A stretch of DNA of 64,000 nt from Promethearchaeota archaeon. GTDB lineage: Archaea > Asgardarchaeota > Odinarchaeia > Odinarchaeales > JBHLKK01. The position numbers and the translations under genes were made by a program. Positions 1 to 64,000 of the stretch are shown here, piece after piece; position 1 is the first letter of the stretch, and each line of letters begins with the position of its first letter. Below the pieces are notes generated by a model that was not told where the DNA came from, searched no databases, and saw only the letters and a list, made by a program, of their open reading frames with translations. The stretch lies in assembly GCA_048939465.1 (NCBI GenBank), contig JBHLPL010000001.1:23562-87561 (forward strand), read 5' to 3'.

Positions 1-129
1 GAGATTGCCTCTCTCAGAGAAGTTAGACTGGTACGACTAATAAAGGCAATTTCGCCAGCTGGGGGGATTTAGATGTCAGGGATGACGAGGCAATCGCCGG
101 ACCGAGCATATATAAAATGAGTAATTGAG

Positions 130-1011
130 GTGGATCTGATGCCAGAATTCAAAACAATACAGGATTTGATTCAGCTAGCTGAGAACAAGAATACGTCGAT
201 GGGACAAATAGTCCTAGAATGGGAAGCTGAATCTGCAGAAAAACCCGTCGAGGAAATACGGACCAGAATGAGAAACTACTGGCAAGTAATGAAGCAGTCT
301 ATTGAACAAGGTCTCACTCAAAAAATAAGGTCTGTAACGGGTTTGACGGGCGGAGACGCAAAAAGAATGATGGACTCGAAGGCAAGGATTATTTGTGAAA
401 ACATGAAAGGGGCCATAGCTAGAGGTTTAGCTGTTGCAGAAGTCAATGCGGCAATGAAAAAGATCGTAGCTGCTCCTACAGCTGGCTCCAGTGGAATAAT
501 CCCGGCAACTCTTTCGGTGACAGCTGAAAAGCTAGGAGTATCTGAAAAGCAAGTTATCCAAGCCTTATTCACCGCCTCTGGTGTGGGGGTAGTCATTGCA
601 AATAATGCGACGATTTCTGGAGCTGAGGGAGGATGTCAAGCCGAATGCGGAGTAGCCTCGGCCATGGCCGCTGCCGCCGTCACAGAATTGGCTGGGGGAA
701 CTCCAAAGCAGGCTGGGCATGCAATCGCTATCGCTTTGACGAATACGCTGGGTTTGGTTTGCGATCCTGTGGCAGGACTGGTAGAAATCCCGTGCATTAT
801 GCGAAATGTCATTGGTGTTGTTAACGCTCTGATTTCCGCTGAGATGGCGTTGGCAGGAATAAGGAGTGTCATTCCAGTAGACGAGGTCATTCTTGCTCTG
901 GATGATGTAAGCAAACGTTTGCCGGAAGAACTGAAAGAAACCGCTTGTGGCGGTCTTGCTATAACCCCCACCGGGCTAAGAATAAAAGAGGAATTTCTGG
1001 GGAAAGAATAG
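130..1011 (+). CDS. sdaAA: L-serine dehydratase (Fe-S dependent), alpha chain
   Basis: 293 aa; Gly/Ala-rich with conserved Cys clusters (GGCQAECGVASAMAAA, CDPVAGLVEIPC) typical of SdaA alpha chain; beta chain not in window. Confidence 0.65.
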   Translation: MDLMPEFKTIQDLIQLAENKNTSMGQIVLEWEAESAEKPVEEIRTRMRNYWQVMKQSIEQGLTQKIRSVTGLTGGDAKRMMDSKARIICENMKGAIARGLAVAEVNAAMKKIVAAPTAGSSGIIPATLSVTAEKLGVSEKQVIQALFTASGVGVVIANNATISGAEGGCQAECGVASAMAAAAVTELAGGTPKQAGHAIAIALTNTLGLVCDPVAGLVEIPCIMRNVIGVVNALISAEMALAGIRSVIPVDEVILALDDVSKRLPEELKETACGGLAITPTGLRIKEEFLGKE

Positions 1012-1023
1012 CTGTGTGGTCAT

Positions 1024-1899
1024 TCAAATAACCTTCTCAAAAACTAAAAGGTTGTACTCATCGGAAGGTTCAAAACCCATTTCTCTCAATTTGCTCGGTA
1101 TGGGTTCAAAATTGCAAGCAAAAGCATGTATCTTCTCTAGCTTCCGTTTTAGGGCATAGTTAAGCAGAAACCCCATCATATCGCCAACTGATTCGGGGTC
1201 TCCACCAATATAGCATGTTTGTATGGCCTTTATGTTCCACGCTTGCTCAATTCTATCGTCGAGAAGAATCACACCTTTAATCTTACCTTCCTTCTCTGAG
1301 ATTATCACTCTCTTGTTTCTCGCGAACGTCTTTGTATCTTCTTCTTCCAATGAATACCAAACAAAGAGTATGGTGTAGAGCCCTGAAGACTTGTCGTAGA
1401 CTGCTGAGTTCTTCAAGAACTCGTTTATTTTTTCGACATCCTCCTTTTTACCCCATCGAGCATCCCCAACATCCTCGAAGTAGTATGGTTCGCACTCCAA
1501 ATGCACGAATTCTGTAATAGGTCTGAATCCCAACTTTCGGGCAAAACCCTGGGCTATCTTGTTAATAGATATTATGCAGGACCGGCCTATCTTGGCTCCT
1601 ACTTGTTTGGCGAAAGAAAAACATTCGCGGTTAAGCAAAGTGGCGATACCTTGTTCCCTGTATTGAGGATCCACCCTTAATCCTTGGAACCAAACTTCGC
1701 CGGGCTTAGTAAGCAAAACGTGACAAATCCCGACCGGCCTTTCGTTTATTAGTCCTACGAATAACCTTCCCCTATTATCCTGAATCCAAAGGTCCCATAC
1801 TTCGGAAATGTAGTCCCCCCATTCCCATGTGTTCTGACAGAATTCTAAAACAGTCTCCTTGTCCGAGTTCTTTGCTTTGCGAATCTTGACTTCCCGCAT
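1024..1899 (-). CDS. GNAT family N-acetyltransferase (two GNAT-like halves)
   Basis: 291 aa; acetyl-CoA-binding motif RVDPQYREQGIATLL (Q/R-x-x-G-x-A) in N-terminal half; second acetyltransferase-like half. Confidence 0.55.
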   Translation of the reverse strand: MREVKIRKAKNSDKETVLEFCQNTWEWGDYISEVWDLWIQDNRGRLFVGLINERPVGICHVLLTKPGEVWFQGLRVDPQYREQGIATLLNRECFSFAKQVGAKIGRSCIISINKIAQGFARKLGFRPITEFVHLECEPYYFEDVGDARWGKKEDVEKINEFLKNSAVYDKSSGLYTILFVWYSLEEEDTKTFARNKRVIISEKEGKIKGVILLDDRIEQAWNIKAIQTCYIGGDPESVGDMMGFLLNYALKRKLEKIHAFACNFEPIPSKLREMGFEPSDEYNLLVFEKVI

Positions 1900-1924
1900 T
1901 TTGATGCATACCTTATCAGATTTG

Positions 1925-5089: not shown

Positions 5090-5755
5090 CTACCAAATCT
5101 CTTCGTCTTCTTTCTTATCATCGTATGTTTTGAAGTGCCTATCTCTGTCTGTTGTATCGAAGCTGGAACGATCCGCTGCGGTGTAGCGCCTGACACCTTC
5201 GGTTCTACGTTCAAGTTTCACGGCCTTTTCTATTGAATTGTGAACCATTTTTGTTGTCAGTGCATCAAATGCTTCTTCTACATGTTCCCCCGTCTTGGCA
5301 CTTGTTTCGATGTATTCACTTCCGATTTCGTTGGCAAACCATTCTGCATCTTCTTGTCTGACCTCTCTCAGGTGAGGCAGGTCCACCTTATTGCCAATTA
5401 AGACAACTGGAGCGTTGGGAGCTCCGTACTTGTATAGTTCCTCCAACCAACCCACTAGGTTTCTGAAGGTTACAATCCTCGTTAAATCAAAAACCAGCAA
5501 AGCTCCAGCGGTTCCTCCGTAGAATGCACTTCTAACCGCCTTAAACCTCTCTTGACCTGCTAGGTCCCATACAGACAGCTTTACCGTTCCTTCATCTGAA
5601 TTTACAGTCTTGGAGAATATGTCAACGCCTATGGTCATTTTGTAGTCTTTTTTGATAAATCCCTTGGTGAATTGAGAAATAAGGCTAGTCTTGCCGACAG
5701 CACCATCCCCCAGAAGCAATGTCTTGAATACGTAGATTGACTCTTTTTGGTTCAT
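5090..5755 (-). CDS. Rab-like Ras-superfamily small GTPase
   Basis: G1 GDGAVGKTSL; switch I Thr in YKMTIGVDIF; G3 WDLAGQERF; G4 GNKVDL; G5 ETSAKTG; charged C-terminal tail. Confidence 0.8.
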   Translation of the reverse strand: MNQKESIYVFKTLLLGDGAVGKTSLISQFTKGFIKKDYKMTIGVDIFSKTVNSDEGTVKLSVWDLAGQERFKAVRSAFYGGTAGALLVFDLTRIVTFRNLVGWLEELYKYGAPNAPVVLIGNKVDLPHLREVRQEDAEWFANEIGSEYIETSAKTGEHVEEAFDALTTKMVHNSIEKAVKLERRTEGVRRYTAADRSSFDTTDRDRHFKTYDDKKEDEEIW

Positions 5756-5830: not shown

Positions 5831-6349
5831 TTAAGTCTTTTTCCTATATTCGAGCATCCTCCTAGTTATCGCCTTAAATGCTCCATTAACGTTCTTCCCT
5901 GTCTTGGCACTAGTTTCCGTGTATCCGTTACCAGTTGTCTTTGCATTCTGCCTCGCTTTTCGCGTAGATACCTTTCTCCGGTTTGTAAGATCTGTCTTGT
6001 TTCCTATGGTAACCACTGGCACTTTTCCTGCATACTCCTGCATTTCCTGCATCCATTCAGAAAGCGTCTCAAAAGTCGTTGGCCGAGTTACATCATAGAC
6101 AAGTAATGCTCCAGAGGCCCCCTCATAAAAGCCCTTTCTTATTATCTTAAAACGCTCTTGACCGGCAATGTCCCAGATTGTTAATTTGGTCTCGCAATCT
6201 CCTAGACGGATCTGTTTGGTGAAAAGATCCACACCTAGGGTCGGCTTATATTTGTGCCTAAAGCGATTTTCAACGTATTTCAGTGTCAACGTAGTTTTGC
6301 CAACAGAACCATCGCCGATTAGCAGCAGTTTTAAGTTGTACTTCTCCAT
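5831..6349 (-). CDS. Rab-like Ras-superfamily small GTPase (tandem paralog)
   Basis: G1 GDGSVGKTTL; YKPTLGVDLF; WDIAGQERF; GNKTDL; ETSAKTG. Confidence 0.8.
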   Translation of the reverse strand: MEKYNLKLLLIGDGSVGKTTLTLKYVENRFRHKYKPTLGVDLFTKQIRLGDCETKLTIWDIAGQERFKIIRKGFYEGASGALLVYDVTRPTTFETLSEWMQEMQEYAGKVPVVTIGNKTDLTNRRKVSTRKARQNAKTTGNGYTETSAKTGKNVNGAFKAITRRMLEYRKKT

Positions 6350-6478: not shown

Positions 6479-7204
6479 TTAAAGACTTCTGAGCTTCCTT
6501 ACAGCTTCTGTAACTGCTTTATCTGGCGTTGGGGCCCTCGAAGCATTATGTATCATTCTTTGATATGATTCAAACCGTTCTTCCGTAATACCGAATTTGC
6601 CGCAGATCTCGCTGACCAAGTCCCCTCGTTTTGTTGCTGAGCTTTTGTTTATAGCAAGCGTGATATCCAGAATTGTAGGAAGAAGCTTTGTTTCAGATTT
6701 GGGATCCCCAAAGCACGATTTCACGGCGTCATACAATTCTGGGCTGGTAACCGTTGCGGTGGTTAAAAAGGAGCTTCGCGTCTCTGTTAATGTCGGTATT
6801 ACCGTCAAAACCAGAGATTTGGAGGAATTACTTATTCTAATACCGCCACCTTCCTCCAATTTTCTAATAGTAATGTCGACTTTACTCTTAAGACAATCCA
6901 GGCTTTTTCTCACTACTTCATCCGAACTTATCTCATATTCCAGTCTTCTTTTCATTAGATTCACCCCAAGAGGCACTTTCGGCAACAGGTTCCTATTTGA
7001 TAGATACCTATTTAAGAGAATTCTCTTAACATAGCTAAAAACATACGGTGATATTAATGAAAAGAAGATTGGTTGTATTAGCGTTGATTGCGGCGTTATG
7101 TCTTTCGATGTACACCTTTGCATTCTCACAAGAAGGTTATGTAGATAATCAAAGACTCTTGGCGGCACCCGCGTTTGCACCAGAGATTTCAAGCTTTCCA
7201 TCAA
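6479..7204 (-). CDS. hypothetical protein (start uncertain; 5' end overlaps the PLD-like gene, internal Met near 6955 more plausible)
   Basis: longest ORF in the gap; no recognisable motif; the overlapping plus-strand ORF 6597..7034 looks compositionally like antisense noise. Confidence 0.3.
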   Translation of the reverse strand: MMESLKSLVQTRVPPRVFDYLHNLLVRMQRCTSKDITPQSTLIQPIFFSLISPYVFSYVKRILLNRYLSNRNLLPKVPLGVNLMKRRLEYEISSDEVVRKSLDCLKSKVDITIRKLEEGGGIRISNSSKSLVLTVIPTLTETRSSFLTTATVTSPELYDAVKSCFGDPKSETKLLPTILDITLAINKSSATKRGDLVSEICGKFGITEERFESYQRMIHNASRAPTPDKAVTEAVRKLRSL

Positions 7205-11616: not shown

Positions 11617-12585
11617 ATGCAGGATGGGAGGAAATCTGGAATGAAGTACTCTATTATAGTTCACGGCGGCGCCGGTACCGTTACACCGGAGAGATCGGAA
11701 GAAGCAAAAAAAGGCGTGCTTGCGGCCCTCCAGAAAGCATCCTCATTACTTGCAGAGGGTAGAGACGCTGTGACCGCAGTAGAAGAATCAGTAAAGATGA
11801 TGGAAGACAATCCAAACTTCAATGCCGGGAAAGGATCCACACTAACGATTGACGGCAGGGTTCAAATGGGAGCCTGTATAATGGATGGAAAAACGTTGGA
11901 TGTGGGTGCTGTCGCGCTGGTTTCAAATGTACGTTATCCTATCTCATTGGCCCGGATCGTCATGAGAGAAACCGATCACGTATTGATCACAGGCGACTTT
12001 GCTGAGCATTTAGCCAAGAAATTCGAGTTGGAAACTAGCGATCCTTTGACAAATAAGAGTGTAGAACGATGGAAACAACTACGCGAGAAGTTTATGAAAG
12101 GGGAACTCAGCTATCTGAAAAAGAATCCGAAGTTGATGAAGATGTTCCCGCGTCTGGTACAGCTTGGGACAGTGGGGGCGGTTGCGATAGATAACGATGG
12201 TAATCTGGCTGCAGCCACATCAACTGGCGGTATTCCCCTAAAATTACCCAATCGGATAGGGGACACCCCCCAAGTTGGGTGCGGAACTTACGCTGACAAC
12301 GCATCAGGAGCGGTTTCAGCCACAGGTGTGGGAGAAGTTATAGCCCGAGTATGTTTGGCAAAAACCGTATGCACCTTCATTGAAACTGGCGAATCCGCCC
12401 AAATGGCAGCCGGCAAGGCCATAGGGGTATTGACTTCGAGGCTAGGAGGGGAGACTGCAGGATGCATAGTCGTGGACAAGGACGGGCGCACCGGTATTTA
12501 TCATAATACCAAGAATCTTGTCTGGGCAAGATTGACACATAAAATGAAAAAGCCAGAAGTTGGGACTGAATATTCATCGGTGTGA
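11617..12585 (+). CDS. isoaspartyl peptidase / L-asparaginase (Ntn-hydrolase, plant-type asparaginase family)
   Basis: N-terminal IIVHGGAGT; autoproteolysis/nucleophile region GTVGAVAIDNDGNLAAATSTGG. Confidence 0.8.
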   Translation: MQDGRKSGMKYSIIVHGGAGTVTPERSEEAKKGVLAALQKASSLLAEGRDAVTAVEESVKMMEDNPNFNAGKGSTLTIDGRVQMGACIMDGKTLDVGAVALVSNVRYPISLARIVMRETDHVLITGDFAEHLAKKFELETSDPLTNKSVERWKQLREKFMKGELSYLKKNPKLMKMFPRLVQLGTVGAVAIDNDGNLAAATSTGGIPLKLPNRIGDTPQVGCGTYADNASGAVSATGVGEVIARVCLAKTVCTFIETGESAQMAAGKAIGVLTSRLGGETAGCIVVDKDGRTGIYHNTKNLVWARLTHKMKKPEVGTEYSSV

Positions 12586-38783: not shown

Positions 38784-38798
38784 AAATCACCCCAATTA

Positions 38799-44939: not shown

Positions 44940-45100
44940 CTATTACACCTCATTAGTCACTGAAAGGTTGTACAACACACACAATTAAAGCTTACGAAAT
45001 TACATCAAATACGGCTTTTCATCACCTAAGTTTTTTAGGTTTGTTCTTCTAATAGTTAACTAGCCTATCGCAATGTCTACAGAATCCTATTTTCCTGAGG

Positions 45101-46264: not shown

Positions 46265-46278
46265 ACTGGTGATATATA

Positions 46279-47025: not shown

Positions 47026-47145
47026 CCTGTCTTTCGCGGTTATGCACCATCTAAGCGGATTATCTTGCGAAAATCTTAAATCTTTTTATGTGAATATTAT
47101 AACAGATCACGCGTAACTCCGATTCATGGATTAGATTAAGATGAA

Positions 47146-51102: not shown

Positions 51103-51175
51103 GGGACGCCTAAGGTGCCCCCTGAATCAATTTAAACCTCGGAGCGAACCCCCTCATTCCTATTTTCCTGTTTAC

Positions 51176-51922: not shown

Positions 51923-52729
51923 TCAAACGCCCCCCTCGGACACTTCCTTCAGCTTAGCTTCAAAGTCTTTAAGCCATCTATCCGCTTGGAACCCAAGCCT
52001 TTCGGCCTCCTCTTCACTGACAGTCTCGCTTGGTTTTCGAGACTTAAGCCTGTCGCGCCATTCTTCAATCTCCTTGATAACCCAGTACTTCGCATTGAAT
52101 CCAGGAAATCTCTTCATAATACTCAGAAGCTCGTCTAGTCGTGGAACAAGCATATCAACTCTTGCTACGTCCTTCAGTCTTGTAAGATCCATCACAGTAA
52201 TCAGATTCGTTGTGATGTCGAGCGTTTTAGAAGCGACTGTTGCAGGAGAAGCTGTCAAAATCTCTAGAAGAGCGCCTGTCTCACCCTCTGCAAGTTTTAG
52301 TTTATTGATCGCCAAAGGAAACTCCCTTACTATTCCTTCATCTTCCAAGAACTTGGCAACGTCGATATTCAGTTCTTCCAATCTGCCTTTAGCCTTGAAT
52401 GCGCCTGTCATTAGCGCTCGGACTTGACGCTTGTACATTGCTGGCTCTATTCTGGCTTCCTTGAAACTCTCGATTATGGATTCCAGTGTTGCGATGCATG
52501 CATAGAGTTCTGCCTGTTTGTCAAGAACGTATTTTCTCTGGGAAGGACTGAGCCTCTGAAGTGCTTCAGACTCCCCCCCTCGAACCGACTCGCTTAGTGT
52601 CGATTTGTATTCCGACGCAGTTGAGCTGTTTTCAAGGGGCTCTTTTGGGGCTTCTTCTTTTTTCTTTTCCTTTCTTTTCTTTTCTGCCTCGGATGTTTCA
52701 CGCTTTCTGGTTACTTCCATCCCGTTCAC
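51923..52729 (-). CDS. Vps28-like ESCRT-I subunit
   Basis: AELYACIATLESIIESFKEARIEPAMYKRQVRALMTGAFKA ~ human VPS28 [42 protein letters not shown]; C-terminal ITVMDLTRL ~ ITVMDKLRL four-helix-bundle region. Confidence 0.6.
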   Translation of the reverse strand: MNGMEVTRKRETSEAEKKRKEKKKEEAPKEPLENSSTASEYKSTLSESVRGGESEALQRLSPSQRKYVLDKQAELYACIATLESIIESFKEARIEPAMYKRQVRALMTGAFKAKGRLEELNIDVAKFLEDEGIVREFPLAINKLKLAEGETGALLEILTASPATVASKTLDITTNLITVMDLTRLKDVARVDMLVPRLDELLSIMKRFPGFNAKYWVIKEIEEWRDRLKSRKPSETVSEEEAERLGFQADRWLKDFEAKLKEVSEGGV

Positions 52730-52750
52730 CAGCGAGTGAGAAAAAGAATA

Positions 52751-53548
52751 TTACTTCTTCAGTTCCTCAAGCTTCTTGGTAACCAAATACAAGTCTTTCT
52801 TATAACGTTTATAGAGCTTACCATACTCTACGTCGCTGATTTCGCCCGATTCGTACTTCATCTCGAGGTTTTGCAGGAGGTCCTCAGTTGCGATCTTTTC
52901 ACCCTCAAGGTCCAATATCCTCTCTTCTTTTGGGTCGCCAAGTTTGGGGGCCTCATGTTGGCCTGAAAGCGAAATGCTTCGAGCGTCCATCGCTCCGCGT
53001 ATTCTGGCCAGTTCCTCGTCCTTTTTCTGCATAACATCTCTCAATCTTAACGTTTCTCTCTCAAGGTTCAGAACCTTTGATTGGAGTTGTCTAACGCCTT
53101 CCGAAACCGCGGCTGTAGGTTCCAGAGCAGTTGTGGCTGTTGCGGGGGCAGAAACATATATGGGTCTGGGCGGCTTACGTGCAAAGAGACCTTTCAGTGT
53201 ATTGACAACCTGATGGATGTGATATTCTGGACGCCATTCGGAGAGTATTTTCAGGCTAACTTCTCCGGATTGCCTATTGATCTGGGGGTGATCTGTCGGC
53301 GTAATCATTTTCACACTAGGCGCTGACCTTGGAAAGTCATCAGGTAATGCTATCTCAACTTCGAATCTCCTCTTCGCGTGTTGTCCTCTACCCGGTATGG
53401 AACCTCTCCAAAGCCTCAGGTTTCCTCTGACTGGAGTAAATTCCTGCGCTCGTCTGTACATGAGTTGGGCTTCTTTAGCAACAATCAATTCAGCATCTTC
53501 AGACAAGTGATTGCCTCCCTTTTGGGTTTTTTCAAGAATAATTATCAA
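52751..53548 (-). CDS. UEV-domain protein (Tsg101/Vps23-like ESCRT-I subunit; catalytically inactive E2 fold plus coiled-coil stalk)
   Basis: UBC-fold region FPRSAPSVKMITPTDHPQINRQSGEVSLKILSEWRP with HP(N) motif but the E2 catalytic Cys replaced by Ser (EVSLKIL vs RICLGIL in the true E2 at 37924..38364); C-terminal coiled coil. Confidence 0.55.
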   Translation of the reverse strand: MIIILEKTQKGGNHLSEDAELIVAKEAQLMYRRAQEFTPVRGNLRLWRGSIPGRGQHAKRRFEVEIALPDDFPRSAPSVKMITPTDHPQINRQSGEVSLKILSEWRPEYHIHQVVNTLKGLFARKPPRPIYVSAPATATTALEPTAAVSEGVRQLQSKVLNLERETLRLRDVMQKKDEELARIRGAMDARSISLSGQHEAPKLGDPKEERILDLEGEKIATEDLLQNLEMKYESGEISDVEYGKLYKRYKKDLYLVTKKLEELKK

Positions 53549-54946: not shown

Positions 54947-55266
54947 CCCTATTTGATAGGAGACGGTCTACCAAAGATTGGGGATGAAAATTGCCGAGTA
55001 TTTATGTCCTTCTTCTTTATATATTTTTGACACTTGAAATTCCGGGCATTTCTAATTCCGAAATAGGAGAATCAGATCCTTGATCGGTAATCAGTGTATA
55101 TGGATTCGATCTATCAAGATTCCAAAAAAAGGAAAATCTTCTTGACGCTCTTCCCTATCGGCGGGTAGAATTGGCGCAGTCTGCGCACCCAGAAAAGAAG
55201 CAAACTACTCCCCCCTTCAGGAAGGAGTCTCCTTGAGGTGGTTTAGATGGATTCTCCAATTAATGA

Positions 55267-55791
55267 CTACTCACTCTGGGTTTTCAACTTCGTAAAAAGT
55301 TGCTTTAACTCCATGTTTAGTGCTCTTCGGACATTTACTGGACTGATAGGTATTGCGGGTCTGGGCGGCTCAGCTGCTCCTTGTGCGGCCACAGGAGTAG
55401 CTCCGCCTGTAGCTGCGGGTGCAACTCCAGGAGCAGTAGCGGGGGTAGGTGACGGTGAAGCTGAGGCAGACGTAGAGGCTGGAGCCGTTGGCGATACTGC
55501 TGAAGGTCTTATTGCGGTCTCTGCAGGTTTCCCAGCGGCCCCTTGGGAAACGGTACTTGCAGTGACTGGAAGAGAGACTCGAGACTCAATCGAGTTAATC
55601 CTACTCTCTATTACGCCTATTTTGATTTCGAGGTTCTTGGACAGACTATTCAGGTTTTGCTCCAGCATATCAATGGCGTTTATAACGATTTCCATAACTC
55701 TGCTTAGTATCGTACTAATTTCCTGGATACGCTTTGGTTGTGACAGCGTTTCATCAATAAGCCTTACGAAGTCTTCTCCCATATCGAACAC
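55267..55791 (-). CDS. coiled-coil protein with Ala/Pro/Thr-rich low-complexity segment
   Basis: N-terminal heptad pattern (LEQNLNSLSKNLEIKIGVIESRINSIESRV); APAST-rich middle; competing plus-strand ORF 55247..55810 covers the same biased DNA. Confidence 0.35.
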   Translation of the reverse strand: MFDMGEDFVRLIDETLSQPKRIQEISTILSRVMEIVINAIDMLEQNLNSLSKNLEIKIGVIESRINSIESRVSLPVTASTVSQGAAGKPAETAIRPSAVSPTAPASTSASASPSPTPATAPGVAPAATGGATPVAAQGAAEPPRPAIPISPVNVRRALNMELKQLFTKLKTQSE

Positions 55792-55806
55792 CGTCTATGA
55801 TTATCA

Positions 55807-56649
55807 CTAAACTTTGCGGTTTATAATCTTTTCTTTTGTATGACTAATAATCATCGCTGTCTTTTTCCCTTCTTCTTTCCTCCTGTCCGAGGCAACCTCG
55901 TGGTTAGTGTTTTGGGTCTCTTTTGCTTCCATCTTCTCCCCCGAGATCTCTTCCTTTCTTTTCTCCTTGGTTATGAATGAACCCCAATCTATTCTGAGCA
56001 TCAGATAGACCAATAGAATCGTTCCCAAAATTCCTATCACGGTACCTGCTGTGCCCCCGCCTCCAAATAATGCTTCAACCAGCGGCCGGAAAAACCTCCC
56101 TCCGTAAGCCAAGATTGCGCATAGAACTATCTTCCCCAAAATGGCTGCGACAACCGCTTTGACAATGCTATACTTCATTACGCCTACAGGGATAAGAAGC
56201 ATATCATCAGGTAAAGGCGTAGCTGCGAACAAGAATATTGCTGCAAATCCATACTTCTCAATTAACTTCTTCATGGATTCTATTCTCTTACCGTATTTTT
56301 CTTCGATTAGCTCCCTTCCTCCCCGCCCTATCGCATAGGCGCTCAATTCTCCAATAGCTGCGCCAAATCCGCAGACTAATGCAAGTATCAGCGGCTCAAT
56401 AAACTCCTGGGTTCCCAGAAGGATTACAGCCAGAGCGTAGGGAACGGGTAGGAAAACTGTGAAGTTGCCAAAGGTGGATATTAGGAAGGCCCCGAAATAG
56501 ACAGACAGTGGACTTCCCACAGCAAAGTTGAACATCCCAATCGTTAAGCTGTCAAAGAAATTGGCAATAGCTTCTATTGAAAACAGAACCACCAATGCTA
56601 TTCCGGTGATTACAAAAGCTATTATGAAAATAATGTCTCGACGTTCCAT
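55807..56649 (-). CDS. DedA/TVP38 family membrane protein
   Basis: DedA core: AYAIGRGGRELIEEKYGKRIESMKKLIEKYGFAAIFLFAATPLPDDMLLIPVGVMKYS (G-R-x-x-G ... re-entrant P-containing helices); ~6 TM. Confidence 0.55.
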   Translation of the reverse strand: MERRDIIFIIAFVITGIALVVLFSIEAIANFFDSLTIGMFNFAVGSPLSVYFGAFLISTFGNFTVFLPVPYALAVILLGTQEFIEPLILALVCGFGAAIGELSAYAIGRGGRELIEEKYGKRIESMKKLIEKYGFAAIFLFAATPLPDDMLLIPVGVMKYSIVKAVVAAILGKIVLCAILAYGGRFFRPLVEALFGGGGTAGTVIGILGTILLVYLMLRIDWGSFITKEKRKEEISGEKMEAKETQNTNHEVASDRRKEEGKKTAMIISHTKEKIINRKV

Positions 56650-56719: not shown

Positions 56720-57685
56720 ATGACTATTTCCACTCCGAATTCTCCGTTAACCTTGATGGAGGATATACTGCTGGCAGAGCTTAAGGCCCTTGTAGAAATA
56801 ATTCGGTTGCCCAATTGCCTCATGGGTAGCTTGACCACGTCGATTTCCGTATTGACAGTAGACAGCATCCTAGACCTGACAGCCGGAGTAAGCCTGTCCG
56901 CTGTTAGCCTCATCTGGTTGCTTGTTATTGCCTATATTACTTACGTCTTTGCAGCGGCTGCAGGGAACGTTGTAAATGACGTATTCGATATCGAAGTAGA
57001 CAGGATAAATCGGCCAAATCGGGTGCTTCCAAGAAGAGCACTAACTGTGCGTCAAGCTAAGATATACACAATTCTGCTTTGGCTGGCCTGTTCATTCTGC
57101 GCCTTCTTAACAAGCATCCCGGCTGGAATTATTGCTACAACCTTTTCACTAGTTGGTTTCGGTTATGCATCAAGGGCCAAACTGCTAGGAATATGGGGGA
57201 ACTTCACCGTTTCGTTTTCTTTTGCCTTTGGTTTGATTTACGGCTCTCTAATAACTTATTATGCCGCTTTGGGCACGCTGGGTCTCCCCCTCCTAATATG
57301 GCTTTACTTCTTCACGGCGTTCTTTATCCTTCAGGGCAGAGAAGTGATTAAGGGGATGGAGGATGTTGAGGGTGACCGAGTGAGGGGTGTGAAAACCGTA
57401 GCTTTGGTTTACGGCTTTAGGAGGGCATCTATCGTGGCTGCTCTTTTCAATATCATAAGCATGATTTGCTTCACAGCCGCGTGGTTTCTGAGTTGGTCCG
57501 GCTGGTCGTCCTTACCAAATATCTGGTACACCGTTTTTCTATTACCCGGCGATGGTATTGTGCTGGCTTCTACAATCTTGATCTTAATGAAATCATCTTC
57601 ATCTTCAGCTCAGAATAGAGCCAGTTTCTATTCCAAAATAGGAAGTCTCCTAGGTCTGTTGGCATTCTTGGTAGGAGCACTATAA
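56720..57685 (+). CDS. UbiA-family prenyltransferase (DGGGP-synthase-like)
   Basis: Asp-rich motif NDVFDIEVDRINRPNRVLP (NDxxDxxxD); 8-9 TM helices; second Asp-rich region EDVEGDRVRGVKT. Confidence 0.8.
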   Translation: MTISTPNSPLTLMEDILLAELKALVEIIRLPNCLMGSLTTSISVLTVDSILDLTAGVSLSAVSLIWLLVIAYITYVFAAAAGNVVNDVFDIEVDRINRPNRVLPRRALTVRQAKIYTILLWLACSFCAFLTSIPAGIIATTFSLVGFGYASRAKLLGIWGNFTVSFSFAFGLIYGSLITYYAALGTLGLPLLIWLYFFTAFFILQGREVIKGMEDVEGDRVRGVKTVALVYGFRRASIVAALFNIISMICFTAAWFLSWSGWSSLPNIWYTVFLLPGDGIVLASTILILMKSSSSSAQNRASFYSKIGSLLGLLAFLVGAL

Positions 57686-57902: not shown

Positions 57903-58760
57903 ATGATTCATTCGGTTTATGTAATCCGAAGGACAGGAGAATGCCTATTCTCCAGAGTATATGATAAGAACGGAATCGACGAAGCCCTAATATCCGGCTT
58001 CTTAAGCGCTCTACAATCTTTCATAAATGAAATCAGTGGAGATTATGTAAGGACTCTGAAAACTGGAAATGTGAAATTTGTCTATAATTTACTGGATGAT
58101 CTGATATTCGTATTCTGCGTCGATCTAGAAGAAGATGAGGAAAAACTGAGAAAGAAGATAAATCTCACTCAGAGTGTCTTCGTAAGGAGATTTGGCAGCA
58201 TAATAGAAGGCTGGAATGGTCAAACCAGCATCTTCGAATCCTTCAATGTAACAGTAGATGACATTGTTACAGATCTCGTAAAGGTATCCGTAATTGGATT
58301 TGGGGGTGTCGGTAAGACGACTCTCCTCAAGCTTATTCTAAGGGAAGAAGTTCCCGTACAACACATTCCAACAATAGCGGTTGATATCAAAGATCTTAAC
58401 GGTGTAAAATCCCCGGCAAAGGTGGTCATGTGGGATTTTGCTGGACAACAGCGTTTTGAATCCCTTTGGGATGTGATGATTAAAGGCTCAGACGTTATTC
58501 TAATTGTTACGGATTCTTCCATGTTAAATATAGTAAAGACCAAGAAAAAAATCATCTCCCTCATTAAAGAGCATAATCCCGGCGCGAGAGTTATTGCTAT
58601 TGCAAACAAACAAGACCTTCCGAATTCGATAAAGCCAAGAGCAATTAGTGACCTTCTAGGCGTACCGGTTTATGGAATTGTCGGCATAGACCCTTCAAAT
58701 CGAGGGCAATTGCTTGAGATAATAGGCGATACTGTTAATAGCTGGCTAGAATATTCATAA
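57903..58760 (+). CDS. roadblock/longin-like domain fused to small GTPase
   Basis: N-terminal ~100 aa MIHSVYVIRRTGECLFSRVY...ISGFLSALQSFINEISGDY (roadblock/LC7-longin-like); GTPase G1 GFGGVGKTTL, G3 WDFAGQQRF, G4 ANKQDL; ~60% identical to GTPase core of 39182..39913. Confidence 0.7.
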   Translation: MIHSVYVIRRTGECLFSRVYDKNGIDEALISGFLSALQSFINEISGDYVRTLKTGNVKFVYNLLDDLIFVFCVDLEEDEEKLRKKINLTQSVFVRRFGSIIEGWNGQTSIFESFNVTVDDIVTDLVKVSVIGFGGVGKTTLLKLILREEVPVQHIPTIAVDIKDLNGVKSPAKVVMWDFAGQQRFESLWDVMIKGSDVILIVTDSSMLNIVKTKKKIISLIKEHNPGARVIAIANKQDLPNSIKPRAISDLLGVPVYGIVGIDPSNRGQLLEIIGDTVNSWLEYS

Positions 58761-59838: not shown

Positions 59839-61644
59839 ATGAAGACTGTGAGAATCTGCAATTTTTGTGGAAGCAGAGAAGCAACTCATTATTGTGAGGA
59901 GTGTGGAGCCTCATTCTGCAGCAGGTGCGCAAGAAAGAAGAAGATCCAAATTAGCATATGTGTAAATTGCGGTGCATCTGTTGACAAACTCAGAAAACAG
60001 AGTAGTATTACGGCCTGCAATGACTGTAATCCGTCAAGCACAAAATCTGCGATAAAATACATAACCCTATGCCCTGATTGCTCTTCAAAGACGGTAGTAC
60101 GCATCAAGAAAAAAAACCATGATTTGTTGATCAAACTCAAAAGTGCAGTTTCAAGTCTTATATCCGGCTACTATATCCTAAAACAATTTTTGGCTGAAGT
60201 GAATACCGTACGGCGCAGGATAGTAGCAATGAGGTATTATGGATTTAGACAGTATCCTGAACTCGAAAAGACATTGATTGCTGTCTATTCTGAAGTTCAT
60301 ACGTTGGGTCAGAACTTTGTCAATACAGTATTCAAAACATTACAGGGAGTAGATTCTGAATTGCTTGTGGTTCTAAGGAAGAGACCATGGGACTCCAAAG
60401 ATTTTCCCTCGGTAGAATCTCTGACAGAACAACTTAGAAAAGATGGACAGATGACTCAGAAAGACTTGATGAACAGACTAACTGATTTAAGACAGCTATT
60501 TATCGACCTTCTTCCTCTAATTGGGTCTCTGGAGTACTTCAGACAAGTGTACGATAGCATAGGGGAGCATTTAATCCTTGATAAGTATGAGAGAATCATC
60601 TGTGCGTTTAGCAAGGTGTCTCTGTCATCGAACTCATCCAAGCGGAGCAAGAATAACGGAACCTTGGTTCTTACAAACCGCAGAATAGTTCTTCATCAAC
60701 AAGCAAAGGGAAAAGGGGCTTTCAATGTAATTGGGGCAAGATTGACTGATTTAAACTCCTATCATGTCGATGAAACAGATGGAAGAATAACTCTGGAAAC
60801 AACGAATGGTAGAACGGAGTTCCTTGTTTCACAGAATGCTGCGAGTTTATTCAAGAGATCTCTAGAGGTAACCGACCGATACGACGGGAATTTAGTAGAT
60901 TTGGATCGCTTAAATCGTCTCATTAATATCCAGTGGGTTTCTTCGGAGTTATATCGTCTGAATAAGAAACTGCAGCTAGAGGTTCTCAATGTGCTGGGGG
61001 AGAAACCCAGACTTCTCGATTCAGCAGTTGTTGCTACATCTGTCTTTAGAGAGTACTCAAATGACACTCCTGAGCCACCGCAGGAGGGGCCAAATGTCTC
61101 GTTTGGGATCAAGAAAGACGATCCCAAAGAGGCCATGAATTCGGAATCTTATAAGGGAACCAAGCCGGCAGGCGTTATTCGTCGCATTGTGAATTTATTT
61201 AAGAATAATAGAAATCGTGAATTATCCGATCTAGTTCTGGAAATTGGCAGAAAGAACAGAACCAATACGGGCGGGATGGTTCCTTTAGCTGAAGTGTACC
61301 TATCGATAAAAGAACTCAGACCTAATCGGAACATCGATGTTGAGGAAGTTGAAAAAGCAATTGAAACACTTAAAGAAAAAGGACTTATAGTTGATTTTAG
61401 GGAACATAACTCTGGAATAAAAGTTGTTGAGTTCTTTCCATTAGAGTTCAGTAGTGATAAGAATACTGTTATAGATTTGGCAGCAGAAAGAGGTCACCTG
61501 ACGCTTGAGGATGTCATACGCAATACGGGATGGTTAGGGGTCAGAGCTGCAAGAGCACTTAAAGGGTTAGAGAAAATTGGGATAGCCAAGCTTGACCCTA
61601 CATATTCTAGGGGAAAGCGTTGGTATTTCCCATACCTGAAATGA
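59839..61644 (+). CDS. Vps36-like ESCRT-II subunit (N-terminal zinc ribbons, GLUE/PH-like domain, C-terminal EAP30-like winged helices)
   Basis: CNFCGSREATHYCEECGASFCSRCA / CVNCGAS / CNDCNPS / CPDCSSK zinc-ribbon pairs; GRAM/GLUE-like GTLVLTNRRIVLHQQAKGKGAFNVIG...ITLETTNGRTEFLV; C-terminus TLEDVIRNTGWLGVRAARALKGLEKIGIAKLDPTYSRGKRWYFP paralogous to 51176..51922 C-terminus. Confidence 0.55.
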   Translation: MKTVRICNFCGSREATHYCEECGASFCSRCARKKKIQISICVNCGASVDKLRKQSSITACNDCNPSSTKSAIKYITLCPDCSSKTVVRIKKKNHDLLIKLKSAVSSLISGYYILKQFLAEVNTVRRRIVAMRYYGFRQYPELEKTLIAVYSEVHTLGQNFVNTVFKTLQGVDSELLVVLRKRPWDSKDFPSVESLTEQLRKDGQMTQKDLMNRLTDLRQLFIDLLPLIGSLEYFRQVYDSIGEHLILDKYERIICAFSKVSLSSNSSKRSKNNGTLVLTNRRIVLHQQAKGKGAFNVIGARLTDLNSYHVDETDGRITLETTNGRTEFLVSQNAASLFKRSLEVTDRYDGNLVDLDRLNRLINIQWVSSELYRLNKKLQLEVLNVLGEKPRLLDSAVVATSVFREYSNDTPEPPQEGPNVSFGIKKDDPKEAMNSESYKGTKPAGVIRRIVNLFKNNRNRELSDLVLEIGRKNRTNTGGMVPLAEVYLSIKELRPNRNIDVEEVEKAIETLKEKGLIVDFREHNSGIKVVEFFPLEFSSDKNTVIDLAAERGHLTLEDVIRNTGWLGVRAARALKGLEKIGIAKLDPTYSRGKRWYFPYLK

Positions 61645-61689: not shown

Positions 61690-62238
61690 TCATCGCCTTC
61701 CCTCGCGGGAACGGCGGTAAGATCCCCTACTGTAGGGTCTTCGTCTTGGTCTAAATCGGTCCTGTTCATATTGTTTTTCGGAGAGATTGTTCTCTGTGTT
61801 TACATCGCCAAACTCGGCATCCTCAAATGACTCAATCGTACCATATCTACCGATATTTAATCGCAAGGATCCCTTGAATACTGTACAGTATCCGTTGTTG
61901 ATTTTGTATATCTGATCTATTTCCACCTTGTCAATGTCCTGATTCCAAAGAGTTAAGTACACGCTACCAGTCTCGTCACCCACCAGAGCTTCGGTGACTC
62001 TTAGTTGTTCACCTGTCTTTCTTGAGAATACCTCTCTTGCCTCATTCTTAGAGGCTACCTTAACTTTTACGTTTACACCTCTAGAGTTCGGATTTAGCTC
62101 TTCTACGACTACAAATTCCTCAGATTCGCTCATTTTAGTTACATCTCTATTCATATACTTTGTTCGTTTAACAAGGATAGCAAAACAAGTCCCTAGAGCA
62201 AGTTTTACATCCTTAAGCGGTATCGGGTTAGATTCCAA
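61690..62238 (-). CDS. OB-fold single-strand nucleic-acid-binding protein (SSB/RPA-like) with Arg-rich tail
   Basis: VNVKVKVASKNEAREVFSRKTGEQLRVTEALVGDETGSVYLTLWNQ...YKINNGYCTVFKGSLRLNIG OB-fold pattern; C-terminal RRRPYSRGSYRRSREGRR. Confidence 0.5.
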   Translation of the reverse strand: MESNPIPLKDVKLALGTCFAILVKRTKYMNRDVTKMSESEEFVVVEELNPNSRGVNVKVKVASKNEAREVFSRKTGEQLRVTEALVGDETGSVYLTLWNQDIDKVEIDQIYKINNGYCTVFKGSLRLNIGRYGTIESFEDAEFGDVNTENNLSEKQYEQDRFRPRRRPYSRGSYRRSREGRR

Positions 62239-62279
62239 GATATTTAAACCTTACTATATGGAAGAAATAGCTTTCTCGA

Positions 62280-62927
62280 TTACTCTTTTTCTTTTTCCTC
62301 TTCTGGTATGTCTTCTTTAAGCCCTTTCTTAATATCTTCAAGTTCCTTCCGTATTTTGTCCTTCTTCTTTTCAGCGACAGCCTTCTCTTTTTCGGTGGGA
62401 ATCTCAGGTAACTCTTCTTCTATGGCCACTTCCTCTTGAAGTTTTGCTAACTCCCTCTCTACGTCAATGTCTTCGCCTTCATCCAAAGCTGTGGCACTTA
62501 ACATCTCACTGGTTTTCTCTATCTCATCAACCAGTTGTTCAGTTTTTAGCATAACTTCAGTAGCTTTCTCACTTGACATAAGTCTTCTTGCTTCTTCAAG
62601 TTGTTCAAGACCAACTTCAAGGGCACGTCCCATGTCGGCAGTATCTCTAGCAGTCTCGATCATATCAATAACATCTTCTAGGCTGCCTACCTGTCTATGA
62701 TAACGATTCATCCATGTGGTATATCTTTTCCATTTTCGAAGATGTGTCCTTGCCCCATCTGTGTTTCCTTGCCTTACAAGCTCTCTTGCTCTCTGCTTGC
62801 TTTCTCCTGCCTTTCTTTCAAATCCACGAACTCTGAGTGTCATCTTGTTGATTGTTGCACGCATTTCTGTAACTGCTTCGTCTCTGCTTTCCTTTTTCTT
62901 GGGGAATAGCTTCCTCAGAAAACCCAA
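62280..62927 (-). CDS. ESCRT-III (Snf7/CHMP family; Vps20/32/60-like)
   Basis: 215 aa; N-terminal MGFLRKLFPKKK basic start, basic helices (ARELVRQGNTDGARTHLRKWKRY), acidic C-terminal half ending in EEL..EKEKE; Snf7 organisation. Confidence 0.6.
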   Translation of the reverse strand: MGFLRKLFPKKKESRDEAVTEMRATINKMTLRVRGFERKAGESKQRARELVRQGNTDGARTHLRKWKRYTTWMNRYHRQVGSLEDVIDMIETARDTADMGRALEVGLEQLEEARRLMSSEKATEVMLKTEQLVDEIEKTSEMLSATALDEGEDIDVERELAKLQEEVAIEEELPEIPTEKEKAVAEKKKDKIRKELEDIKKGLKEDIPEEEKEKE

Positions 62928-63636
62928 ACAACTTCACCTCATCAATACTAGAATTGACATTTTGAGCTTATTATACTTTACTTTTTAGTTCTCCTATTTC
63001 TAAACCTTATGCTCTGTCGAAAGGAGCACTGAGTCTCCTCATTCTTTCTTATCGTCTTTGCCTATTTCCCTTATTAGCGGCTTTTCCTCCTTCAGTCCGA
63101 GAATTCTGAACTTGGGGTATTGCTTTTCCAATTGTTCTCTCAGTCTTTCTTTATTTACGTTTCCGTGCGTTTCAACATTAACAATCGGTCTGTCGCCTTC
63201 GTATGTTACTTGAATCGGATAACCGCCTGCACCGCCAAAATCGTCGTTCAGAAATCTCTTTTCTAAGGCCTCAGATAATCCGAAATCTTCATCAAATGGA
63301 TCAGAAATGGTTCCCTTTTTTTTCTTTTTGCCTAAAGGGTTCCCCCCCTGCTGAAAAATATACCCAATTATCTTATGATTTACGGAAAAATAAAAAACTA
63401 ATGGTTTCCGATAAGGTTTATCGTTTGAGGGTTAGGTATGGTTTCCTAGAAATGCTTTTCATCAGGGAATTCGCATACTTCCCGCATGTGGGTGGTTTTG
63501 CTGTCACTGAAGGGAAAATCGAGGAAGCACGGGAGAGGAGATTGAGAAGGCTTGGGAAATAAGTTCACGAGGGCTGTCAAGAGGGATTGTTATACGTCTA
63601 TGATCGACTCAATGAGTTGAAGGACCAGGAGGAATT

Positions 63637-64000
63637 ATGTTGGTTGGCAAAAAATACTCATCGCTCAAAAAGAAAATCGTAGAAATAGAAAAAAAGCTCC
63701 TTGAAAAGGGTTTTGTTGTTGGCCCTGCAGGAAATGTAAGTGCTAGGACTCCCGAAGAGGACAAGATCCTCATAACTCCAAGTGGAGTAACTCATGATAG
63801 GATTAAGACTGAGGATATCCTGATCGTAGATTTTAAAGGTGATATCTTAGATGGTGAGCTTGCCCCCTCGAGTGAAATAGAAATGCACTTGTCTATATAC
63901 CGAACGCAAGAAGATGCTGGTGCAGTAATCCACTCTCACCCACCCTTTTCCACAGCTTTGGCAGTCGTTGGGGAAACTATTCCTCCTCTTACGGATGAAT
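63637..64000 (+). CDS. class II aldolase/adducin-family protein (partial, runs off window end)
   Basis: GFVVGPAGNVSAR...ILITPSGV...EIEMHLSIYRTQEDAGAVIHSHPPFSTALA matches class II aldolase N-domain (fuculose-P aldolase/MTRu-1-P dehydratase-like). Confidence 0.6.
   Translation, partial: MLVGKKYSSLKKKIVEIEKKLLEKGFVVGPAGNVSARTPEEDKILITPSGVTHDRIKTEDILIVDFKGDILDGELAPSSEIEMHLSIYRTQEDAGAVIHSHPPFSTALAVVGETIPPLTDE

Follow-up and report, generated by a model that had tools for sequence, protein, structure and literature searches.

The ubiquitin and ESCRT genes of Asgard archaea show recurrent arrangements, in which Vps25 is co-directional with Vps4, and Vps22 with Vps23 and Vps28, and a single ubiquitin-ESCRT cluster has been described in Ca. 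Odinarchaeum (PMC9192718, PMC10936438). The DNA analysed here, referred to as the window, is a stretch of 64,000 nucleotides that forms part of a 96,683-bp GenBank contig from a metagenome-assembled genome (MAG) named 'Promethearchaeota archaeon', an uncultured Asgard archaeon of the kingdom Promethearchaeati. Its arrangement agrees with the published patterns, Vps25 and Vps4 being co-directional, as are Vps22, Vps28 and Vps23, and resembles that of Ca. Odinarchaeum, where the complete ubiquitin-ESCRT set likewise lies in one cluster. A contiguous supercluster of 17.5 kb (36.0-53.6 kb) holds 13 of the 20 genes counted as eukaryote-like, and a second, small ESCRT group is found at 57.9-62.9 kb. 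The first-pass annotation had described these genes as dispersed rather than sitting in an island; this is true only of a Rab pair, a gelsolin candidate, profilin and Get3, whereas the eukaryote-like genes as a whole are adjacent more often than expected in a permutation test (p=0.044).

The supercluster opens with a membrane protein combining a Zn ribbon and a Yip1 domain (36079-36864, + strand), which flanks the ubiquitin cassette and is conserved in the assembly L003. Neither this protein nor the other EAP30 protein of the window, the 601-residue one at 59839-61644 described below, was listed in the first-pass annotation. The E1, E2, ubiquitin and RING genes proposed there were each matched by a family profile, and all share the minus strand. 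The E1-like ThiF/MoeB adenylyltransferase (36932-37954; PF00899, 228 bits) is followed by an E2 ubiquitin-conjugating enzyme with an HPN...C active site (37924-38364; PF00179, UQ_con, 130 bits), by an 80-residue ubiquitin-like protein (38541-38783; PF00240, 29 bits, gathering cut-off 25.4), named 'ubiquitin-like domain-containing protein' by NCBI, and by a 79-residue RING finger protein that is a candidate E3 (38799-39038; PF13639, 29.5 bits, cut-off 27.3). The ubiquitin-like protein ends in ...GGDP, and no deubiquitinase gene for trimming this end was found within the window. Adjoining the cassette is a fusion of a RING domain to an Arf-like GTPase (39182-39913, - strand). The fusion has a RING duplicated locally from the small RING gene: the two genes share a 156-nt direct repeat of 75% identity, and their RING modules are 67% identical at the amino acid level.

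The ESCRT part of the supercluster includes divergently oriented genes for an ESCRT-III protein of the Snf7 family (44325-44939, -; PF03357, 52 bits) and Vps4 (45101-46264, +), the latter with MIT, AAA and Vps4_C domains and scoring 309 bits to yeast Vps4. ESCRT-II is represented by Vps25 (46279-47025, +; PF05871) and a Vps22-like EAP30 protein (51176-51922, -; PF04157, 60.5 bits), and ESCRT-I by Vps28 (51923-52729, -; PF03997, 62 bits, aligned over the whole model length) and a UEV/Vps23-like protein with a C-terminal coiled coil (52751-53548, -; UQ_con 62 bits, UEV 29.4 bits). The UEV protein has an E2 fold and reads HPQ...GEVSL; the catalytic Cys is kept in the E2 and missing from the UEV. 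ESCRT-I, -II and -III and Vps4, as called in the first-pass annotation, are thus borne out by profile matches and, together with the domains of the ubiquitin cassette, all score above or near curated cut-offs. Four genes outside the ubiquitin and ESCRT families interrupt the supercluster. These encode a coiled-coil protein of conserved position (40075-40623, +), a 351-residue helical protein (40634-41689, -) overlapping the end of a gene for an 868-residue HerA/FtsK-superfamily ATPase with extra N- and C-terminal domains (41676-44282, -), which follows Snf7 directly on the same strand, and a type-I membrane protein of 1318 residues embedded among the ESCRT genes (47146-51102, +), which carries 41 N-glycosylation sequons, has a charged cytoplasmic tail and is conserved in L003 and L004.

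The second ESCRT group includes a Snf7-family ESCRT-III paralogue (62280-62927, -; PF03357, 71.7 bits) and a 601-residue protein (59839-61644, +) composed of three Zn ribbons, a helical region, a GLUE-like PH domain and Vps22-like tandem winged helices, and the order of these two genes is kept in L016. The domain build of this ESCRT-II-type protein resembles that of eukaryotic Vps36, although its PH/GLUE similarity is marginal (E 0.018) and its AF2 model is of low confidence. Among 1.84 billion representative proteins the full-length architecture was found in this lineage only, and we found no description of a lineage-specific Vps36-like ESCRT-II protein; the remaining content of the window is established Asgard biology, a known eukaryote-like gene set. 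The same group contains a GTPase fusion (57903-58760, +) which shares 59% identity with the RING-GTPase in its Arf-like G domain. Fusions to RING-like and roadblock domains had been proposed, and the RING fusion stands, but the supposed roadblock domain is instead longin-like (N-terminal PF19036, 27.2 bits, cut-off 26.1).

Outside these groups, two neighbouring Rab-like GTPases, 47% identical to each other, were confirmed by the Pfam Ras model: one of 221 residues that lacks a C-terminal Cys prenylation motif (5090-5755, -; 170.7 bits), annotated by NCBI as 'Rab family GTPase', and one of 172 residues (5831-6349, -; 184.4 bits), for which Thorarchaeota Rab (7ezb) ranks best in the PDB, followed by Rab21, 25, 7, 11 and 1. 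Profilin (32337-32744, -; PF00235, 29 bits, cut-off 25) and a single-domain Get3/TRC40/ArsA-family ATPase (33317-34276, +; PF02374, 292 bits; TIGR00345, 289 bits, cut-off 135) were likewise recovered as annotated; Get3/ArsA homologues also occur outside Asgard archaea and are not specific. The gelsolin-domain protein of the first-pass annotation (21687-22541, -), which consists of an N-terminal region of ~100 residues, a Pro-rich linker and a C-terminal beta/alpha domain, is a weak assignment. It bears a gelsolin-like motif and its two best PDB sequence matches are Asgard gelsolins (E 0.06-0.6), but no Pfam match was obtained even at E<=10, and its AF2 model (pLDDT 45) gave no Foldseek match.

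Family searches agree with the archaeal character attributed to the informational genes, namely ABCE1/RLI, an archaeal-eukaryotic informational marker (12560-14392, +; NCBI start 12 codons downstream), an ATP-dependent DNA ligase (22633-24399, -), an aCPSF-like beta-CASP RNase without the N-terminal KH region (26712-28097, +) and a glycyl-tRNA synthetase of the dimeric archaeal/eukaryotic type (28401-30137, -; TIGR00389, 634 bits). A gene described as DGGGPS-like (56720-57685, +) does encode a UbiA prenyltransferase whose best matches are DGGGP-synthase models, but it scores below their equivalog cut-offs.

The Asgard origin proposed for the locus is supported by exact matches in GenBank, where ABCE1 and ten other proteins of the window are found on a single 'Promethearchaeota archaeon' MAG contig, ABCE1 under the name 'ribosome biogenesis/translation initiation ATPase RLI [Promethearchaeota archaeon]'. 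Of the 120 best ABCE1 matches, the closest named ones are Asgard throughout, an Odinarchaeia sequence being nearest (64% identity), compared with 55-58% for other Asgard classes and Bathyarchaeia. In a neighbour-joining tree of this single marker, built from top matches only and lacking Heimdall, Loki and Thor sequences, the window falls in a group of bootstrap 100 together with the named Odinarchaeia sequence and three that are unnamed. The PDB contains few Asgard structures; among them, the best match of Vps25 is Odin Vps25 (7pb9, E 7.5e-41) and that of profilin is 5zza (44% identity, E 6e-30), well ahead of chains 7pbh (E 6e-13) and 6yrr (E 6e-6); we take 5zza to be the Odin profilin and 7pbh and 6yrr to be Heimdall profilins. 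The three proteins ABCE1, profilin and Vps25 agree on Odinarchaeia as the closest named lineage. Vps4 is 93% identical in two related MAGs, one of which is deposited as 'Candidatus Hodarchaeota archaeon', and the label of this close relative, DZ1B.307, would place the organism in Hodarchaeales/Heimdallarchaeia. We consider this unlikely, since no Heimdall or Hod sequence occurs among the 120 best ABCE1 matches, profilin and Vps25 share the Odin affinity, and ESCRT genes are reported to be absent from the Hodarchaeia in the data set of Makarova et al. 2024.

Taken together, it is very probable that the window is native Asgard chromosome with Odinarchaeia as its nearest named relatives, whose eukaryote-like genes are resident archaeal genes, passed on vertically and arranged in prokaryotic operon-like runs around the ubiquitin-ESCRT supercluster. 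Native status and vertical inheritance, as the first-pass annotation had suggested, are supported by uniform composition, by conserved gene order and by distance from eukaryotic orthologues. GC is flat along the window (0.41-0.47), and eukaryote-like and housekeeping genes do not differ in GC (p=0.45), GC3 (p=0.39) or codon use (p=0.21). At a coding density of 91.5%, co-directional genes abut, overlap or leave short gaps. Gene order is shared with two related MAGs at 71-93% amino acid identity, eukaryote-like and other genes diverging similarly, and is also found in independent read-archive assemblies. The tight clustering of the supercluster and the patchy distribution of ESCRT components over Asgard genomes (PMC10936438) could also indicate an island that is mobile or has been exchanged laterally between Asgard lineages rather than inherited strictly vertically. 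Such an origin appears even less likely than the Hodarchaeales placement, as the window contains no tRNA gene, Rfam match, integrase or long flanking repeat, its composition is uniform, and the Odin affinity of Vps25 and profilin is consistent with that of ABCE1. Recent acquisition from a eukaryote, although such domains are elsewhere characteristic of eukaryotes, is scarcely credible: the matching composition and codon use, prokaryotic gene runs and neighbour-like divergence across MAGs all argue against it, and the proteins are nearer to Asgard than to eukaryotic homologues and only distantly like the eukaryotic orthologues, with Vps25 reaching E 6e-7 to the human protein, the E2 scoring only about 90-98 bits to eukaryotic E2s, and a Thorarchaeota protein as the best match of the Rab. 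A chimera of archaeal housekeeping DNA with foreign DNA rich in eukaryote-like genes, conceivable for metagenome-assembled sequence, is just as implausible given the flat GC and the recurrence in independent assemblies of junctions between genes of the two kinds (Acs-CarA-CarB-unknown ORF-gelsolin candidate-DNA ligase in L001, HDAC-Yip1-E1 in L003 and P-loop protein-UEV in L004), the DNA ligase being found as an identical protein with the same neighbours on independent Logan contigs.

Based on the eukaryotic pathway and on published biochemistry of Odin and Heimdall proteins, we infer how these resident genes may act together. The ubiquitin precursor would be trimmed, activated by E1 and passed through E2 to membrane cargo via the small RING protein or the RING-GTPase. 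ESCRT-I, formed by the UEV/Vps23-like protein and Vps28, would read the ubiquitin, and ESCRT-II, formed by Vps22 and Vps25, would nucleate the two Snf7-family ESCRT-III proteins, with the 601-residue protein possibly serving as its Vps36-like membrane- and ubiquitin-binding subunit; Vps4 would then recycle ESCRT-III. The Rab-like and Arf-like GTPases may serve as switches of membrane identity, and actin, encoded elsewhere in the genome, would be the target of profilin and perhaps also of the gelsolin-like protein.

The longest non-overlapping open reading frames of the window were taken as the gene set, and about 60 predicted proteins were scanned against Pfam and NCBIfam. The window has a coding density of 91.5% and a flat GC content of 0.41–0.47, and its genes form co-directional runs with short gaps or overlaps. 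The informational genes, which the first-pass annotation had read as archaeal, match archaeal types, namely ABCE1/RLI, a dimeric-type GlyRS (634 bits), an ATP-dependent DNA ligase and an aCPSF-like beta-CASP RNase, and an archaeal DUF2095 protein is also encoded. The DGGGPS-like reading stood in part, the UbiA prenyltransferase being closest to DGGGP-synthase models but scoring under their cut-offs. Ordinary metabolic genes code for CarAB, an acetyl-CoA synthetase, an asparaginase, a radical-SAM protein and peptidases. The tRNA and Rfam scans of the window came back empty, and neither ribosomal proteins nor rRNA genes were found in it by the Pfam and Rfam scans. Two pairs of long ORFs without a family match overlap on opposite strands, 6479–7204 (−) with 6597–7034 (+) and 55247–55810 (+) with 55267–55791 (−); in the second pair the minus-strand ORF is favoured over the plus-strand one by a weak tblastn match in L004 (JBHLKK010000054.1), a locus of isolate DZ1B.307. 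Most of the eukaryote-like genes, 20 in our count, already bear matching names in GenBank. Identical GenBank entries (MFX14855xx, locus tags ACFFBS_*) exist for ten proteins of the window and for its ABCE1, all on a single 96,683-bp contig of a MAG labelled ‘Promethearchaeota archaeon’.

Promethearchaeati, the kingdom name used for the Asgard archaea in the literature, includes the Promethearchaeota to which the assembly is assigned, and the proposed Asgard origin of the locus was examined by the phylogeny of an informational marker. The closest named ABCE1 belongs to Odinarchaeia, at 64% identity, followed at 55–58% by sequences of Frey-, Jord-, Borr-, Atabey-, Baldr- and Asgardarchaeia and of Bathyarchaeia. 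In a neighbour-joining tree of this single marker, for which sampling was limited (26 sequences, 572 columns and 200 bootstraps), the window clusters with its two close relatives, the Odinarchaeia sequence and three unnamed ones with a bootstrap of 100, in agreement with that origin. The profilin, recognised as such from the start, scores above the PF00235 cut-off and matches PDB entry 5zza, which we take to be the Odin profilin, with an E-value of 6e-30 and 44% identity, compared to 6e-13 or worse for the other Asgard profilin chains, presumably those of Heimdall and Loki. The nearest solved relative of Vps25 is 7pb9 (38% identity, E 7.5e-41, with human Vps25 at E 6e-7), the crystallised Vps25 of Odin (PMC9192718). 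Scanning a genome collection with Vps4 retrieved two true relatives, the species-representative MAGs H2M.176, labelled ‘Promethearchaeota’, and DZ1B.307, labelled ‘Candidatus Hodarchaeota’, both at 93% identity; 11 further loci, all of them bacterial AAA ATPases with 36–41% identity, are not relatives. The ‘Hodarchaeota’ label of DZ1B.307 looks doubtful because ABCE1, profilin and Vps25 point to Odinarchaeia; no ESCRT genes were recorded for Hodarchaeia in the data set of Makarova et al. 2024 (PMC10936438). Placement at class level near Odinarchaeia is tentative, since it draws on one marker tree and on thin Asgard sampling in the PDB. The window adds a lineage, apparently sister to the described Odinarchaeia, that has the entire ubiquitin-ESCRT pathway in one conserved cluster.

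A full ubiquitin cassette had been proposed, and all four components, E1, E2, a di-glycine ubiquitin and a RING E3, are encoded together at 36932–39038 on the minus strand. The order of transcription is RING-GTPase, small RING, ubiquitin, E2, E1. Both the ubiquitin (38541–38783, −) and the small RING protein score above their Pfam cut-offs, the E2 retains the HPN...C active site, and the E2 and E1 genes overlap. The ubiquitin-like protein ends in ...TEGGDP, so C-terminal trimming would be needed, and no deubiquitinase gene, of the JAMM/Rpn11 type or other, was detected in the 64-kb window. A membrane protein with a Zn ribbon and a Yip1 domain is encoded immediately next to the cassette (36079–36864, +), a position that is kept in the related locus L003; eukaryotic Yip1 proteins are Rab-interacting.

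A repeat scan revealed that the RING module has been duplicated locally, with 156 nt at 75% DNA identity between 38808–38963 and 39656–39811, which belong to the genes at 38799–39038 (−) and 39182–39913 (−), respectively. One of the two RING copies forms a fusion with an Arf-like GTPase and lies immediately upstream of the RING-ubiquitin-E2-E1 run. The G domains of this RING-GTPase and of a longin-GTPase (57903–58760, +) are 59% identical but their N-terminal modules differ, and comparison of the two sequences suggests that an Arf-like GTPase was duplicated and combined with different domains by shuffling. GTPases fused to RING-like and roadblock domains had been expected in the window; the RING-GTPase and a second fusion are indeed present, but the ‘roadblock’ domain scores as longin. 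The eukaryotic TRIM23/ARD1 also combines an Arf domain with a RING E3 module and has B-box and coiled-coil domains in addition; its likeness to the RING-GTPase is one of architecture and not of demonstrated descent. Longin- and roadblock-GTPase fusions (longin-Arf/Rag-like), which the longin-GTPase of the window resembles, are documented in Asgard genomes, and the RING-GTPase fusion has no mention in this Asgard GTPase literature (Tran et al. 2024, PMC10933270; PMC11914678). Since the RING-GTPase is encoded beside the ubiquitin cassette, ubiquitin ligation may be coupled to a GTP switch. The E1/E2/RING operon of Caldiarchaeum subterraneum, which we take to include an Rpn11-like deubiquitinase and to have no ESCRT-I or -II genes nearby, differs from the window, where the former was not found and the latter are close by. 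Both arrangements are archaeal and compact, and in both a small RING E3 accompanies ubiquitin, E1 and E2 (Nunoura 2011; Hennell James 2017, as referred to in PMC9192718).

The ESCRT set, with its Snf7 gene about 4.4 kb from the ubiquitin cassette, occupies 44325–53548 and comprises separate UEV/Vps23-like and Vps28 genes, Vps22, Vps25, ESCRT-III and Vps4. Pfam domain scans identified Vps28, matched over the full length of its model, Vps22 (EAP30), Vps25, two Snf7-family proteins and a complete Vps4 (MIT, AAA and Vps4_C), and the ESCRT-I, -II and -III components and Vps4 claimed earlier are thus all present. The UEV protein (52751–53548) carries HPQ...GEVSL in place of the HPN...C of the E2 and so lacks a catalytic cysteine, as in Vps23/Tsg101; no match to Vps23_core (the steadiness box) was found in it, but a weak CdvA-like coiled coil instead. 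The Vps22 and Vps28 genes abut, with 0 nt between them. Snf7 (44325–44939, −) heads a co-directional run (40634–44939, −) with an 868-aa HerA/FtsK-superfamily ATPase, after a 42-nt gap, and a 351-aa helical protein, with a 14-nt overlap, and this run is kept in L003. An inserted defence system of a recognisable kind was considered for the HerA-like module of the cluster and set aside, since the PADLOC scan gave no more than generic HerA similarity. Between Vps25 and Vps22, and co-directional with Vps4-Vps25, lies the gene for a 1318-aa predicted type-I membrane protein (47146–51102, +) that has 41 N-glycosylation sequons, 3.1 per 100 aa compared to 0.40 elsewhere in the window (about eightfold), and a charged cytoplasmic tail of about 170 aa. 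The gene is conserved in both L003 and L004, and its product may function at the cell surface or be a cargo of the ESCRT system.

The eukaryotic ubiquitin-dependent ESCRT (multivesicular body) pathway shares protein families and domain logic with the window, where they are known from the genes: a UEV lacking the cysteine, Vps28, a tandem-winged-helix ESCRT-II, Snf7 and an MIT-bearing Vps4. Unlike in the eukaryotic pathway, the genes of the window run operon-like, and their sequence similarity to eukaryotic orthologues is low. No ESCRT-0, Vps37, Mvb12 or Bro1/Alix was detected in the window.

Two adjacent Rab-like GTPases are 47% identical to one another. The best solved relative of the second is a Thorarchaeota Rab, followed by the eukaryotic Rab21, Rab25, Rab7, Rab11 and Rab1, and the best 60 PDB matches listed for it are all Rabs, in keeping with the Rab-like assignment. 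Inspection of both sequences found no C-terminal prenylation Cys motif, and Asgard Rab-like proteins usually lack this cysteine. The Get3 assignment was upheld, the ATPase being by sequence a clear member of the GET3/ArsA/TRC40 family (TIGR00345, 289 bits against a cut-off of 135); the Get3/ArsA ATPase family is not restricted to Asgard archaea but is widespread in archaea. For the proposed gelsolin-domain protein (284 aa; 21687–22541, −) the evidence is divided. No Pfam match was obtained even at E≤10, a scan that was also empty for most other unassigned ORFs. The top two PDB sequence matches are the Asgard gelsolins 7whf and 7c2f, at marginal E-values of 0.06–0.6 with single sequence and profile, and the stretch aligned with them, VVVIDEPNEVVWLWIGQQISFVRKRAASRIANSI, is similar to the strand-helix signature of gelsolin. 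The protein has only six clusters of close homologues, and the AF2 model is poor (pLDDT 45) because only 5 close homologues were available; Foldseek with this low-confidence model gave no fold match. The protein is, on its PDB matches and motif, a plausible candidate gelsolin.

In order to characterize the origin of the eukaryote-like genes, their composition was compared with that of the housekeeping genes, as the first-pass annotation had favoured vertical inheritance. The two groups are alike in GC content (0.437, n=20, vs 0.442, n=26; p=0.45), in GC3 (p=0.39) and in pooled synonymous-codon usage (permutation p=0.21). The block HDAC-Yip1-E1-E2-Ub-RING-RING/GTPase-coiled coil-unknown-HerA-like-Snf7-Vps4-Vps25-1318 aa protein-Vps22-Vps28-UEV-P-loop protein is found again in both related MAGs, with identities of 71–93% for the eukaryote-like genes and 77–87% for the others. 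No mobile-element signature was detected in the window by tRNA and repeat scans, the latter finding only the duplication of the RING module. Uniform composition, conserved gene order and the lack of such a signature are all consistent with vertical inheritance. A recent transfer from a eukaryote is very unlikely, as composition and codon use are the same, gene order is conserved in two MAGs and the similarity of the window proteins to eukaryotic orthologues is modest. It is likewise very unlikely that the window is an assembly chimera, since independent read-archive assemblies reproduce its gene neighbourhoods, both Acs-CarAB-unknown ORF-gelsolin candidate-DNA ligase and Metallophos-601 aa protein-Ssb-Snf7.

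The description of the eukaryote-like genes as dispersed and not in one island needs amending: 13 of the 20 fall within a 17.5-kb stretch (36.0–53.6 kb) interrupted by only four other genes, and adjacency among eukaryote-like genes is modestly above chance (p=0.044), while the remainder do lie outside it, three of them at 57.9–62.9 kb. This clustering matches published Asgard patterns, in which Ca. Odinarchaeum has a complete ubiquitin-ESCRT set in one cluster, Vps25 is associated with Vps4 and ESCRT-III, and Vps22 is co-directional with Vps23 and Vps28 (PMC9192718; PMC10936438). In Ca. Odinarchaeum yellowstonii LCB_4 the same full set, E1, E2, ubiquitin, RING, separate UEV/Vps23-like and Vps28, Vps22, Vps25, ESCRT-III and Vps4, is found in one cluster where Vps25 adjoins Vps4 as it does here (Zaremba-Niedzwiedzka 2017; Hatano et al. 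2022, PMC9192718), the comparison covering gene content and the adjacency of Vps25 and Vps4. Unlike that of LCB_4, the cluster of the window is interrupted by the HerA-like ATPase module and the predicted 1318-aa glycoprotein, and the window has as extras the RING-GTPase and a second EAP30 paralogue with Zn ribbons and a PH-like domain; identity between the ABCE1 of the window and its nearest Odinarchaeia-labelled counterpart, not necessarily that of LCB_4, is no more than 64%. Native ubiquitin, ESCRT, small-GTPase and actin-regulator genes are already established in Asgard archaea, and the window confirms them; with its complete and co-evolved set of proteins it also lends itself well to reconstitution experiments.

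The second EAP30 paralogue is a 601-aa protein (59839–61644, +) annotated in GenBank as hypothetical. Residues 7–81 contain six CxxC pairs, forming three Zn ribbons, and are followed by a helical region. Residues ∼245–347 match the Vps36 GLUE domain (PF11605) with 22 bits, below the cut-off of 24.1, and a bacterial PH domain also weakly, and the C-terminus is an EAP30 tandem winged helix that shares 37% identity with the Vps22 encoded in the window. When the PH region was searched as a profile, the best match among solved sequences was the yeast Vps36 GLUE domain (2cay_A, E 0.018); the seven matches included three further Vps36 entries, the rest being bacterial PH or GRAM domains. The AF2 model shows six strands and a helix for the PH region, a PH-like pattern, with low confidence (pLDDT 48) because only 3 close homologues were available. 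Foldseek with this model, informative for the winged-helix part only, placed the ESCRT-II subunits Vps22 and Vps36 of human and yeast at the top (E 8e-7 to 3e-5). The winged-helix core was considered as a Vps36 orthologue, but by sequence it is nearer to Vps22/Snf8 (E 5.5e-6) than to Vps36 (E 3.4e-3), and it is about equally far (37–43% identity) from many Asgard Vps22-like proteins. Eukaryotic Vps36 consists of a GLUE/PH domain, a helical domain and two winged helices, to which the yeast protein adds NZF zinc fingers. The 601-aa protein, with its candidate PH region, helical region and tandem winged helices, appears to follow this order, and it too carries zinc fingers. It differs from Vps36 in that its Zn ribbons are N-terminal and not inserted in the PH domain, its winged helices are nearer to Vps22 and its N-terminal part belongs to an Asgard-specific family.

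When 1.84 billion representative proteins were searched exhaustively with HMMER, the 601-aa protein was matched over its full length in its own cluster alone; every other match covers one of its two parts, the N-terminal 390 positions or the winged helices at the C-terminus. The N-terminal 390 residues belong to the Asgard-specific Znr_PH_CC_SB (Zn-ribbon-PH-coiled-coil) family; Znr_PH_CC_SB and cog.002441 are both described as Asgard protein families (Makarova et al. 2024, PMC10936438). A domain scan of 39 members of this family detected bPH_3 in 22, B-box Zn fingers in 14, Vps23_core in 7 and GRAM in 6, whereas EAP30 was found in three, all from the window's lineage. Where Znr_PH_CC_SB proteins have a steadiness box (Vps23_core), the 601-aa protein ends in an EAP30 tandem winged helix instead. 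The fusion is confined to the window's lineage, and a convergent origin is therefore likelier than an ancestral one; we interpret the 601-aa protein as a fusion specific to this lineage in which the Vps36 architecture is reproduced, probably through convergence.

Asgard genomes have been described as encoding a single Vps22/36-like gene, with Vps36 arising in eukaryogenesis, and Odin Vps22 as a monomer that may have an ‘as-yet undiscovered’ partner (Hatano et al. 2022, PMC9192718). The 601-aa fusion offers a sensible lead towards such a partner. A bolder proposal, to which we give rather little credence, is that the 601-aa protein acts as a functional counterpart of Vps36 and third ESCRT-II subunit, in which a GLUE-like PH/zinc-finger module for membrane and ubiquitin binding would be mounted on a Vps22-type core. 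If this were true, the Odin-related lineage of the window would have a eukaryote-like ESCRT-II of Vps22, Vps36 and Vps25, the separate Asgard Znr_PH_CC_SB proteins would, by the ‘Rosetta-stone’ logic of the fusion, work with ESCRT-II, and the Vps36 design would either be older than eukaryotes or have arisen twice. The 601-aa fusion bears on whether a Vps36-like function preceded eukaryotes and on the identity of the partner of Odin-type Vps22.
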